Assembly: GCF_006345805.1 (NCBI RefSeq)
Contig: NC_042997.1
Coordinates: 18,848,001-18,912,000, forward strand
DNA: 64,000 bases
Origin: Octopus sinensis
Lineage: Eukaryota
Direction of reading: 5' to 3'
Positions 1 through 22,835 of the stretch are shown here, in pieces. How positions within the stretch are numbered: the stretch's first letter is position 1; each line of letters opens with the position of its first letter. The position numbers and the translations under genes are program-made. The notes below the pieces were generated by a model, which saw only the letters and a list, made by a program, of their open reading frames with translations, had not been told where the DNA came from and did not search any database.

Positions 1-1835
1 TCATCATCATCATCGTCATCATCATCATCATCAGTAGCAACAGTAGTACAGCAGTATTTTAGCTTAGTTTTTAAATTTGGATGCCCTTTCTATCATCAAG
101 CACATTATAAAATATCCTGAGTGCATTTCACCATGGTAACAGCTCTAAATCTTTGGTCATGTTACAATCATGACCCTATGCTATCTTCACTTAATTGTTA
201 TCCCCTTTACTGAGTGTACTGGATGCATTTCATTATGACACAACACCTTCTAAGACTAAAAAGTTCTCACTACCTTATGCTGAGTCCATTTGCGGAATAC
301 AACATGACCAAGAGGGTGAATAGCAAACGGAGTGATGGTAGGAGAAACTAGGGTGCATGTAGGGGAAAGGAACATGTATATGGTGGTAGAGACAGAGCTG
401 TAGGGGTGTGGAGGTGGGAATGTTGGCTGTTAGAATAAAAAGGATGATGATTGGGTGTATTAAGCAGAGGATAGTAGGAGGGTGCTCGAATACAGGGAAG
501 TCCAGGTCCATACCCCATTAAAGGAATGGTATAGTCCAGTGAAAGGAAAATGGAGAAATGTTTCAGAGAAAATACGGTTAGATAGGTACAATGACATCCC
601 TACATAGGAAGAATGACAGTGAGTAGGAGAAATTCACTAGTATCTAAAAAGGTGGATAGAAGACAAGGTAAGCTGACAGTGATAGGAAGGAGAGTGACCC
701 AGTAGAGAGTGCTAGAGCAAAAGATTGATAAAGAGAGATGAGTGGTCAAAAGATGTGAGAATGGGGAGAAGGCATTATGAGACTGGGCAGGCTGTAGACG
801 TAGAGTCAATGGGGAATGTTACATGGCACTGGCCTGAGGGTCTGAGGGCCAGTCAAGCAGCACTGGCATCGACCATGCTTAAATGGTGCTTTTTATGTGC
901 CACTGGCATGGGACCAGTCAGACAGCACTGTACATAAAAGAGGTGAAGTGGAGAGCAACAGTGTAATTAAACTGTGGGTGAGAAATAGGGATATGATGTG
1001 AATTATTAAGGATAGAAATGATGATAAGTGACAGAGATGAAGGTCAGAAGCATATAGGGGTGGATATAATGAGTGACAAAAAGGTGATGGATTATTGATG
1101 GTAGATATGAGAAGATATTTAGGGGAAAGACGTGTTCAATGGAAAATGCAGTGGTAAGAGATAAATTTGCCACAAGGGCAGCAGTTTTTGGAGAGGGGAT
1201 GAGTCAATTACATTGACCCAAGTGTTCAACTAGTACTTATTTTATTGACCCTGAAAGGATGAAAGGTAAAGTTGACCTTGGAAAAATTTGAACTCAGAAC
1301 ATAGCAAGAGATTAAATACTGCTAAGCATTTCTCCCTGCATGCTAACGATTCTGTCAGCTCGCTGCCTTATAGTGGTAAGAGATAATGATGAGAATGTGG
1401 GACATGTGACAAAGGAAGTGGTTGAAAAGCAGGGATAACTAGCATCATGACAGAAGGGATGGAATATGTGCAGTTCTGCTCTAATATAATAACAGCAGCT
1501 GAGGCAATAACATCATAGTGAGAAGGGTGGAAGAGGGAAGGGTTTTATGAATATGAATTATTGTTGGGAAGGCTTGAAGGGTAAAACTTGGATGTGAGGG
1601 CTTAGACATTCACGATTTGTATTTAAGAACTCAAGGACAGTAAATTATCAATCAACTCAGACTTTTGTCATCTCCACTCAGTCTCTGAGCTCAGTCTTCC
1701 CAGCTTTGCTCATGTCATTTTGGGTTTCCCTCTACTATAAGTTCCATCCATTTGTAGGGCACGTCTATATGCAGCTGTTTTCATCTATACACATCACATG
1801 ACAATATCAACACAATCTTCACTCCTGCACACCTT
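1..1835 (-). mobile_element. Old RTE-clade LINE 3' end (RT C-terminus remnant, probable long 3' UTR, (GAT)n tail)
   Basis: Minus strand 1835-1655 translates as GVQE*RLC*YCHVMCIDENSC, matching the RTE R-L-R-W-Y-G-H-V-M-R-M motif also seen at 7.6 kb. (CAT)n at 1-33 and A-like fragments at 60-260 and 820-935. Continuity of the whole span is inferred. Confidence 0.5.
1165..1371 (-). mobile_element. SINE group C (C2 tail)
   Basis: Body motif GAAAGGATGAAAGG..GTTGACC..ATTTGAACTCAGAAC shared by more than 10 copies; perfect 15-bp TSD AGTGGTAAGAGATAA at 1150-1164 and 1372-1386. Confidence 0.9.
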
Positions 1836-20195: not shown

Positions 20196-21183
20196 AATTC
20201 TTATTGTTAATTCTGTCCATGTTTATCCACTTACTAATCTCTACCCTGTCTACAAGGAACCTCATACCTGAAGCATAGAGTAGATGTTTTTGTTGTTGTG
20301 TGTGAAGACTTTCATTTCAAACTGTTTGTTATCATTGAATATTCTGCAGGAACTTTCCTTGAACCTGATCATTTCAGAATATTTTAAAGAGGATGTAGTA
20401 AAATTACATTCTACTGCTTACTTCAGCCCATAAGTGAAATTCAGATTTGTACTTCACTCTAATGAAAGTTATGTTACTGACACATTTTAATATGCAATAC
20501 ACTGAGATGAACTCTGTGAGGTGTCCGCCAAAATATACATAGAAAGGTAGTGGAATGGTAATTGATAGTTCAGTGTCTTTTAACAAACACATTGCAGCAT
20601 TAGTGTCAGGATATGATACATCAACTCTTTGGTTGATTGTCCAGCCTATTACCATTTTGATCACCTACAGCTGAGATAATATTATTACTTATGGAAACAA
20701 ATTGTCCAGATATAAAGAAGCTAATTGTCAAGACATTATAATTTTCCATTCTTGTTAGTAAAAAATTTGAATTCAAAGAAGATGAAAATTGTAATATCCT
20801 CATTATGCAGTTCTATATTTAAGAGATGAGGAATTATATATATTATTTACAATTGGCGGGTATTTGTCCTTATCTTATTTGTTGTTAACACAACGTTTCG
20901 GCAGGTGAAATTATATATATTATTTACAATTGGCGGGTATTTGTCCTTATCTTGTTTGTTGTTAACACAACGTTCCGGCAGGTGAAATTTCGAACCTGAA
21001 TTCTCATTCCTAAGGTTCAAGGAAAGTTCTTGCAGAATATTCAATGATAACAAACAGTTTGAAATGAAAGACTTCACACACAACAACAAAAACATCTACT
21101 CTATGCTTCAGGTATGAGGTTCCTTGTAGACAGGGTAGAGATTAATTAGTGGATAAACATGGACAGAATTAACAATAAGAATT
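20196..21183. repeat. 171-bp inverted repeat, arms 20196-20366 and 21013-21183
   Basis: Arms are reverse complements with 3 mismatches by manual comparison. Confidence 0.95.
20832..20985 (-). repeat. Two tandem 77-bp units of the PLE terminal (pLTR-like) sequence
   Basis: Units start at 20832 and 20909 with 2 mismatches; minus strand reads CACCTG-CCG(A/G)AACGTTGTGTT. Confidence 0.9.
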
Positions 21184-21416
21184 CCTATATGCTGTTCATA
21201 TCTGCACTCAGTCTGCTTAGGAGGTTGTTGTGTCATAGCATATGTGCTGCTTCTTTTAGTTTTCGTATTTTCCAGTGGTGCTCTCTGTCTATTAATTTAA
21301 TTTCATCCCACAGAGAACACCAGAGGAAAATATAAAAACTAAAAGAAGTAGCACATATGCTAGGACACAACAACCTCCTAAGCAGACTGAGTGCAGATAT
21401 GCATAGCATATGGGAA
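21182..21416. repeat. Hairpin/palindrome with 107-bp arms (21182-21288, 21310-21416) and a 21-nt loop
   Basis: About 10 mismatches between arms by manual comparison. Confidence 0.95.
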
Positions 21417-21484
21417 CCGGTATTAAGGAAGCATAGAAGAATATTGGATTTATAAGCCCTAAAATTCACTCCATAATTGCCCAT

Positions 21485-21558
21485 GGGCATATGGCATAGT
21501 GGTTAAGAGTGTCTGCTACTGACTCCAAGATTCCAAGTTCGATTGCAGGCAGTGACCT
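21485..21558 (+). promoter_or_regulatory. tRNA-like Pol III promoter module inside the PLE 3' region
   Basis: A box TGGCATAGTGG at 21492-21502 and B box GTTCGATTGC at 21537-21546 with tRNA-like spacing; imperfect acceptor stem. Confidence 0.7.
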
Positions 21559-21630
21559 GAATAATAATAATAACAACAACAACATCGAAGAATACCTTAG
21601 GAATGAGAACCCAGGTTCGAAATTTCCCCA

Positions 21631-21655
21631 AGACACCTGATGAAGGCTGGAAGGT
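21631..21655 (+). ncRNA. 5' half of a type I hammerhead ribozyme (incomplete, probably inactive)
   Basis: ACAC-CTGATGA-AGGCTG (core at 21637-21643); the matching GCC-GAAAC-GTT-GTGT half is missing here but present on the minus strand at 20881-20902. Confidence 0.6.
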
Positions 21656-22835
21656 TTAACAACAAACAATAATATTATAACCTCATTATCGTTACTGAAC
21701 ACGGTTAGTGCTTGATCATCTAAGATTTCTCTGTGAATTTCATCTGGCTCTTCATATGCTGGGTTTAAATACTGTCAAGGCAAACTTTGCATTTCATCCC
21801 TGGAGAAAATAAAATAATGTACTAGTCAAATACTAGAGTGAATGATATCTACTAACCACCTCTCCTTAAATTAAAAACAATTATTACTTAATACATAATG
21901 TATGTTATGGCTATAGACATGGTCCTGGATTCCGTCCCACTAGGTGGTAGCTTGTGCATGTGTCTTCTACTGTAGTCCTTAGCCAACCAATGCCTTGCTA
22001 GTGGATTTCGTAGGTAGAAATTGAAAACAACCCATAATGTGTGTGTGACTATATATATCATCTTCATCATCATCATACACACACACACAGAGTCTAGAGC
22101 AACGTAAAATAAAGTGTTTTGCTCAAGAATACAATGCATTGCCTGCTCAACGATATTCACCATGATATTCAATATTGATTTCTAACATAGACACACAAGG
22201 CCACACAATTTGGTAACAGGTTATAGTCAACCAGCACTAGTACTTGACCAGTACATTTCTATTTACTCTAGAAGAATGAAAGGCAAAACTGAACTCAGAA
22301 TTATTTGAACACAGAATATAAATATGACAAGTGTCTCTACTACTTCTACCAATCTCTCCCTCCCTATAATCATTATTAAATTCATTATTTCAATACCTTA
22401 AATTTAAGAACTATCTAATTCATGCTATCACTGGAAAATCAAATGAAAAATCAATTAGAAAGGAAAACAAACATAGCTACACAAATTTCTCTGAAGTCTT
22501 GCTATTGCAAGAAATTTTAGTTCACCAAGTCCCTTTGGGAAATGTTTGTTGTTTATTTACAAAAGTACACAGATTAAATTTCATAAAGTTAAAAGAAATG
22601 GTATCGATAAAATATAACCTCAATAATTGTTTATGGACTCAGGGGCCATGAAAATAAAACTGTAAGCTTAATTTCAAAACAGGTAAAGGGAAAGAAAGTC
22701 TAAAATCAAACTAAGATAAAATTATATTTATGGTCGAAAATGCAACCAGTGAATACAAATCTATCAATATTGGGTATATATGCGTATATGTGTGAGTGTG
22801 TACATATATGATTGATATCTATGTATGCATATGTT

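Follow-up and report, generated by a model that had tools for sequence, protein, structure and literature searches.

The window analysed here, 64,000 nucleotides of the Octopus sinensis genome (NC_042997.1, positions 18,848,001 to 18,912,000 of the forward strand), holds at 21310-21669 the 5'-truncated end of a Poseidon-type Penelope-like element (PLE). The end of its ORF, a 29-nt spacer, a tRNA-derived head with A and B boxes, an (AAT)n tract and a minimal hammerhead follow one another (Table 1), and tRNA +1 of the head is position 21485. An earlier note made from the letters alone had listed an ORF stop, a head with A and B boxes, a repeat tract and a hammerhead sequence, and all were found where it had placed them. 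With its inverted pieces included, the whole insertion spans ∼20808-21669 and exceeds the extent first described.

Table 1. Features of the PLE insertion in the window (positions are those of the window).
Feature	Position	Strand	Remark
Left 9-bp direct repeat	20798..20806	+	same 9-mer at 21681
Inverted pLTR piece with outer (+270) tail end	20808..20902	-	91-93% to family model
More inverted pLTR fragments: second copy of +175..245, and +107..139	20909..21016	-	
Inverted 171-bp duplicate of host DNA (source 20196-20366) within the insertion	21013..21183	-	98% identical
Inverted ORF end, head-to-head with main copy	21182..21313	-	
PLE ORF C-terminal end (GIY-YIG endonuclease tail), 5'-truncated	21310..21455	+	
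29-nt 3' spacer; its end is a short palindrome across the head start	21456..21484	+	
tRNA-derived head, start of the pLTR; no cloverleaf	21485..21559	+	
A box	21492-21502	+	window head
B box, damaged in window copy (conserved C61 to G)	21536-21546	+	
(AAT)/(AAC)n spacer, length varies between copies	21560..21584	+	
ORF start carried in pLTR, through hammerhead; ATG at 21603	21603..21669	+	
Minimal type I hammerhead, 5' half only	21632..21659	+	
Right 9-bp direct repeat	21681..21689	+	same 9-mer at 20798

The window copy is a dead element, and the damage already suspected was confirmed at three places. The ORF end, whose stop ends at 21455, carries an in-frame stop at ∼21333, the B box is changed, and ∼20 nt comprising the 3' strand of stem II, GAAAC and the cleavage site are deleted from the hammerhead, so that CTGATGA at 21637 is followed by no GAAAC in the next 60 nt. 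A second B-box-like word at 21614-21624, in the ORF start, has neither the conserved C61 nor a partner A box. The 9-bp direct repeats around the insertion are a possible target-site duplication. The source of the 171-bp host duplicate lies ∼430 bp left of the insertion, and the inverted, nearly identical copy suggests a template switch onto nearby target DNA. Rfam matches to miRNA hairpins at 21219-21379 are explained by the head-to-head inversion of the ORF end.

A 361-bp query from the locus gave 4,891 candidate matches in the genome, and since all 40 that were scored cover the whole unit of ORF end, head and tail, the arrangement is not due to chance. Walking upstream through genomic copies reached RT sequence and then the N-terminus. 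The resulting majority sequence (minimum coverage 12) has 2,652 nt per unit and one open frame of 835 aa, with RT followed by GIY-YIG. The repeating unit reads head, (AAT)n, ATG, hammerhead, ORF, 29 nt and head again. We regard this architecture as practically certain. BLASTP of one copy (L300) against an A. carolinensis PLE protein (P0108) gave 36% identity over 547 aa (E 6e-105) covering RT and EN; a Pfam search of two mutated single copies returned no match. The nearest proteins (P0001-P0013) are 53-69% identical to the family ORF, and one relative (P0010) opens with the same hammerhead-coded peptide. In the family ORF, in P0010 and in P0001 the second GIY-YIG motif is YKG, not YIG, which marks a sub-lineage. 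Similarity and domain order point to assignment among Penelope/Poseidon PLEs, and the copies display typical PLE traits: partial-tandem pLTRs, 5' truncation, inverted 5' arms and an optional 3' tail.

Genome-wide counts of exact 21-mers, which are lower bounds, were 11,407 for the outer tail, 6,812 for the ATG region, 3,847 for the head and 888 for the upstream spacer. At non-CpG sites the copies have diverged by 4.4-5.2%, which makes the family look inactive in this genome. One locus (L153, G000:C6:89429000-89438900) packs at least 7 direct or inverted family pieces into 8 kb. In contigs from sequencing runs, ORF end, head and tail were present under four organism labels, and contigs spanning the spacer-head junction under one of the four (run X20). 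These contigs give no starts, strand or level, and a depth step at the head is not copy number. In run X20 (organism F) the region L155:6500-7290 carries many high-share variants missing from the other three runs, which suggests a lineage-specific, perhaps younger subfamily. Within the literature covered, which took in few subscription papers and neither Repbase nor Dfam, we found no account of this element. The family may already be catalogued in repeat databases or in the repeat library of PMC13282606, a paper that lists octopus Penelope families without detail.

Compared with a profile built on 27 distinct tRNAs of this genome, the family head gave a match at E 1.4e-5, the best one among the six amino-acid types sampled being to tRNA-Arg(TCT); the window copy gave no match to the same profile at E≤10. 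The head has no acceptor stem and no cloverleaf. ARAGORN called no tRNA in the window. In the family head it made no call at -ps80 or above, and one at -ps70 was rejected because it is in the wrong register. A tRNA match was also lacking when the window and copies close to the majority sequence were searched with Rfam. Both A and B boxes, assigned by the type 2 Pol III consensus, are intact in the family and lie at tRNA spacing.

The head is the fixed first part of the pLTR of the element. It is contained in all 40 scored matches, and at least part of it lies downstream at 30 of 30 spacer-anchored loci (some are overlapping pairs or the window itself), so that a one-off SINE insertion was rejected and the module is family-wide. 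Two of 29 loci anchored on the ORF N-terminus have a 5' pLTR that includes the head, and several others begin further in; tandem ORF-end sequence upstream of the 5' pLTR was seen at none of the 29. In the full-length copies (L205 and L210/L313) the sequence begins at head +3 and -2 and continues as far as the ORF N-terminus, and L313 is collinear from head +1 through the ORF to the second head. The head start lies ∼115 nt upstream of the ORF ATG. No head with a different body was found among 30 head-only loci or 212 head matches, and other SINE heads scored only 11-16 bits against this head. The window also holds other abundant SINE-like repeat families (D12, D14-D17), one of which has a tRNA head weakly like that of the PLE (13 bits) and is a possible donor family. 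The tRNA-like sequence at L222:3062-3136 precedes a PLE ORF fragment by ∼480 bp, is absent from the 3' pLTR of that fragment, and is probably an unrelated SINE.

The hammerhead core of the family is, judged by its motifs, intact; that of the window is broken. A minimal-core pattern had 5,199 exact matches in the genome and a reversed control had 1, and all 100 of the matches listed look like this family. The predicted ribozyme has CUGANGA and GAAA cores, stems I and II with all pairs standard or G-U, an NUH site (the triplet GUU) and a palindromic core suited to dimers, and a common family variant sits on the free position 7. The active dimer is predicted at -22.3 kcal/mol, compared with an MFE of -29.2 kcal/mol. 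The identification rests on the motif pattern: the CUGAUGA/GAAA core that the earlier note required was recovered, and a match to the Rfam hammerhead model was absent from the window and from close-to-majority copies. In the predicted structure we see no difference of substance from the minimal type I hammerheads described for PLEs, with which it has in common an unpaired base before stem II, a 6-bp stem II, a 5-bp stem I, no stem III and the dimer-suited palindromic core (PMC4209133). Three further loci (L002, L005, L025) have, like the window, independent-looking deletions of the 3' half near the cleavage site.

About 21 of 30 loci found with a head-only query began at the head, and samples ordered by position were therefore drawn. 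Sample 1 took the first places on contig C1 anchored by the tail 21-mer (88 loci minus 2 duplicates) and yielded 112 pieces, inverted arms being counted as separate pieces in this and the second sample. A head was found in 70 and not in 42, the latter mostly beginning in the (AAT)n tract. Among the 61 pieces extending as far as +17, 48 end in the interval from -20 to +17 and 13 continue into the ORF, so most head-bearing copies begin at the head and have no ORF, as the earlier note had envisaged. Stop density at the head is 0.022-0.033 per nt, compared with 0-0.005 in every other bin. Sample 2 (90 anchors, partly overlapping sample 1) gave 26/34, or 27/37 after three reassignments by eye. About a quarter of sampled pieces begin in the (AAT)n tract (loci L357-L446), several of them fused to the (AAT)n tails of other repeats. 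Since the Anolis carolinensis element PAc nicks at ATT, the tract may be a self-target or a site of microhomology.

The commonest single start is tRNA +1 (7/70), and many others fall at -2 to -8. Those at -14 to -17 represent fold-back doubles of the head, which puts the true ends nearer -8..+8. Transcription from a type 2 Pol III promoter starts a few nucleotides before tRNA +1. Copy ends report on such a start indirectly, and a palindrome at the same place (see below) blurs them. In our view the pile-up very probably marks the 5' end of the RNA. That this end is set by RNase P, cutting at the tRNA-like head, and not by transcription is extremely improbable; the preference for tRNA +1 would fit such a cut, but the absence of an acceptor stem or cloverleaf would not, and the starts at -2 to -8 lie upstream of where the cut is expected. 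Among 24 upstream flanks examined for shared non-element sequence, which would have indicated upstream promoters, we found none beyond remnants of inverted heads and one 16-nt simple match, in a comparison of low power.

Inverted element pieces lie upstream in 32/53 head-starting copies. The remaining 21/53 were assigned by script, ∼2 of them wrongly, and a target-site duplication of at least 8 bp was found in 2 of these 21 (null 2.4%). A perfect palindrome with 5-bp arms occupies -7..+4, exactly at the pile-up of 5' ends, and together with the frequency of inverted arms this means that fold-back could inflate the peak. In its strongest form this would make the head a passive SINE relic in an element transcribed by Pol II, with ends piling up through cDNA fold-back or RT release at the palindrome. 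Of four palindromes with 5-bp arms in the pLTR and the last 700 nt, this one is indeed the most GC-rich, it forms the centre of many junctions, and a small cluster of starts (4/90) occurs at another palindrome near +128. Yet a 4-5-bp hairpin would hardly seem strong enough to halt some three quarters of RT runs, starts at the other palindromes amount to ∼0.004 per nt and those at the head to at least 0.017, and the passive relic leaves a unit free of T4 runs (see below) unexplained. Non-inverted copies share the head start, as do those in which a template jump joins it to ORF sequence (L086, L105, L188, L190), and we therefore read the palindrome more as a result of, or a helper to, a fixed RNA end than as its cause. 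We therefore consider the passive relic quite unlikely.

The 3' ends of copies are also fixed. Among 141 copies, 34 end at +270 and 29 at +244, both inside the ORF and 85 and 59 nt beyond the hammerhead cut, which is +185 of the pLTR. At the cut itself there was no clear excess of 5' ends (5/90 in +184..195, 0.0046 per nt, compared with 0.002-0.004 nearby), and cleavage as the source of copy ends was rejected. The short copies are thus not units running from hammerhead to hammerhead, since their ends do not lie at the cut. In PAc, both RT start sites lie within the first part of the ORF, and the enzyme works mainly on uncleaved RNA (PMC11167929). By analogy, an RNA that begins at the head and is primed internally would yield exactly the solo pLTRs found here.

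Do the solo pLTRs form a lineage of their own? They bear the tRNA head at the 5' end, as tRNA-derived SINEs do, and they retain both boxes about as often as ORF-linked copies. No A-tail of the LINE type was present on the copies. Non-CpG divergence is 4.4% for head-starting and 4.9% for ORF-linked copies, and subfamily variants are common to the 56 head-starting and 66 ORF-linked pLTRs compared (G63A in 25/56 and 28/65; T133A in 16/55 and 9/63, p 0.07). The sole differences were at head positions 0 and 2 (p 0.02 and 0.04, uncorrected), beside the junction. The agreement in divergence and variants speaks for one set of master elements, and a non-autonomous SINE lineage with its own masters was rejected on these grounds. 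A non-LTR retrozyme was likewise set aside, as locus maps show solo, inverted-pair or ORF-linked copies and same-strand neighbours are rare. Of the proposal in the earlier note, the Pol III unit has held up as the best reading; the idea of a SINE or retrozyme as an independent element inside its helper has not, because the head is the start of the pLTR and the two kinds of copies have divergence and variants in common.

The closest surviving form of that proposal, SINE-like satellites of the tip of the element itself, would have two polymerases at work: Pol III making short pLTR RNAs that are copied in trans by the element protein, and Pol II read-through supplying the coding RNA. It would account for the excess of short over ORF-linked copies (3,847 vs 888 exact 21-mers) and for the boxes kept in solo copies, and it removes the problem of translation discussed below. 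We nevertheless judge it unlikely: no terminator follows the pLTR in the element, the head also starts full-length copies, the whole ORF is without T4, and solo copies show neither specific subfamily variants (the nearest being T133A) nor a younger age. Moreover, the RNA of PAc must reach well past the RT start sites, and the solo copies have no such extension.

Pol III halts at runs of at least four T, as is well established (PMC3141230), and T4 runs therefore bear on which polymerase reads the element. The sense strand of the 2,652-nt unit has no T4 run, compared with 31 A4 runs. For the ORF, 2.9 T4 runs are expected by synonymous shuffling (P 0.03; 0.025-0.03 across codon shuffles) and 5.1 by third-position resampling (P 0.003), and all eight synonymous sites able to form T4 use C. 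Against Markov nulls the absence was not significant (P 0.075, first-order; 0.26, second-order), and G4 runs are also absent from the unit (expected 1-2.3). In 137 real copies, which confirm the shortage, we counted 0.30 T4/kb, with no shared site above 4/59.

A control from the same genome was sought with the anole protein, but this search gave the present family alone (30/30 loci), and controls were for that reason taken from metagenome contigs. Of 80 metagenome PLE loci, 41 were used and 39, with no open frame of at least 350 aa with an RT motif, were left out. T4 was present in 40/41 control ORFs, at a median of 4.7/kb and an overall observed/expected ratio of 1.1, and the eight control ORFs with similar T content had 1.9 T4/kb; the family unit is here a majority sequence and the controls are single copies. 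Four low-T control ORFs from unrelated PLEs (L256, L262, L263 and L292) have 0-1 T4 runs, and three of them avoid T4 at 7/7, 8/9 and 8/9 sites; no head is visible in the four, whose pLTRs lie mostly off the contig. Upstream of the match at L198 lies a fragment rich in T4 runs, presumably from an N-terminal-type GIY-YIG PLE (Naiad-like by motif). The deficit is a modest one and moderately supports read-through by Pol III.

The stop-to-hammerhead region points the same way. Control regions contained T4 in 9/9 and an A/B head in 0/9, and the T-rich tracts seen in 9/9 control PLEs are absent from the pLTR of this family. We think it probable that the head descends from a SINE with a tRNA head, inserted into the 3' UTR of an ancestral element, where it displaced the usual T-rich Pol II promoter region. 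It is conceivable that this CpG-rich, SINE-derived region instead serves as an internal Pol II promoter that starts near tRNA +1 by chance. Described PLE promoters are internal and LINE-like, the pLTR of D. virilis Penelope containing an internal promoter of the TATA-less kind (PMC2377424), and for Chlamys-3 the start is likewise placed within the pLTR (PMC8557442); RNA from such a promoter would be capped and translated normally. Starts a few nucleotides before tRNA +1, where a type 2 Pol III promoter would put them, the preservation of both boxes in the family and the missing T-rich tracts make this very unlikely in our view.

Taken on sequence evidence, the RNA that begins at the head is likely to be made by Pol III, and we lean towards the head being the element's own promoter of the Pol III type. 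Starting a few bases ahead of tRNA +1, Pol III would encounter no T4 terminator and could read on through the whole unit into the next pLTR. The RT of the element would then prime internally at two sites, +244 and +270. Priming in the first pLTR would run off at the RNA 5' end and leave a dead solo pLTR of ∼245-270 bp that looks like a SINE, and priming in the second would give ORF-linked, usually truncated copies such as that in the window. Fold-back of the cDNA end, made possible by the palindrome at the head start, would produce the frequent head-to-head doubles. The full form of this model is more tentative, and somewhat less likely than not: Pol III would make the entire 2.65-kb RT/endonuclease RNA, the ORF would have been purged of T4, uncapped RNA would be translated by way of an (AAU/AAC)n leader, and internal priming would have generated tens of thousands of SINE-like solo repeats. 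This requires some way of translating an uncapped Pol III RNA, and the frame that begins at the first ATG of the head is two codons long. According to Kojima (2024), the processivity of Pol III keeps such elements short (PMC10886601).

In its architecture, hammerhead and tails the element is an ordinary Poseidon-type PLE (PMC4209133, PMC8557442, PMC11167929). As in PAc, there is one ORF of ∼835 aa with RT then GIY-YIG, it begins in the pLTR at or near the hammerhead, the two 3' ends correspond to the two internal RT starts of PAc, and the tail is optional (PMC11167929). Also alike are 5' truncation with inverted arms and a hammerhead cut that is not mirrored in copy ends. Unlike PAc as described there, the octopus element has a pLTR whose first parts are a tRNA-derived A/B-box head and (AAT)n, as well as a 3' spacer of only 29 nt, a T4-free unit and a strong pile-up of 5' ends at the head. 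The nearest counterparts with a tRNA promoter in the terminal repeat are TRIMp3 elements (Cassandra, Helenus, Ajax), which have a Pol III promoter derived from a small RNA inside the terminal repeat, probably from a SINE insertion, with a tRNA part that is no functional tRNA (PMC10886601). TRIMp3 are, however, short non-coding LTR elements (<1.3 kb) with PBS and PPT, and their author expects the autonomous partners to use Pol II (PMC10886601). In the octopus element the promoter-like piece sits in an autonomous, protein-coding PLE whose repeats flank the PLE ORF, and identity with TRIMp3 was rejected, the likeness lying in promoter placement alone.

An A/B-box tRNA head opens thousands of dispersed copies of 250-270 bp, as in tRNA-derived SINEs. 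Unlike SINEs, the copies form no lineage apart from the coding element, their body is the ORF start of the PLE itself, they carry no poly(A) or repeat tail, target-site duplications are infrequent and inverted arms are frequent. Schistosoma SmAlpha is reportedly a hammerhead-bearing tRNA-derived SINE. The octopus SINEs OK, OR1 and OR2 belong, by description, with the tRNA-derived SINEs; OR2 has been named as a CORE SINE (PMC4758252). Metazoan non-LTR retrozymes also contain a type I hammerhead and are derived from or related to PLE pLTRs, and are tandem non-coding repeats with a hammerhead per unit (bioRxiv 10.64898/2026.07.22.740005, PMC7761336). In contrast, the copies described here stand alone or as head-to-head pairs, and the cut site does not determine where they end.

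Non-coding parasites such as SINEs and TRIMp3 are known to have Pol III promoters, and their autonomous partners have been assumed to need Pol II. No autonomous PLE driven by Pol III was found in the literature covered (most subscription papers, Repbase and Dfam lay outside it), and a Pol III start in an element encoding its own copying enzyme would, if true, be unusual. It would let one ask of a natural system whether Pol III transcripts of such length can undergo translation and retrotransposition, and would show a direct route from a coding retroelement to SINE-shaped elements that involves no separate parasite. The sharp 5' ends are a rare genomic read-out of where a PLE transcript starts, and they fit the internal-priming model of PAc. 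Thousands of short copies in this genome, which annotation would class as a SINE, are pieces of a PLE.
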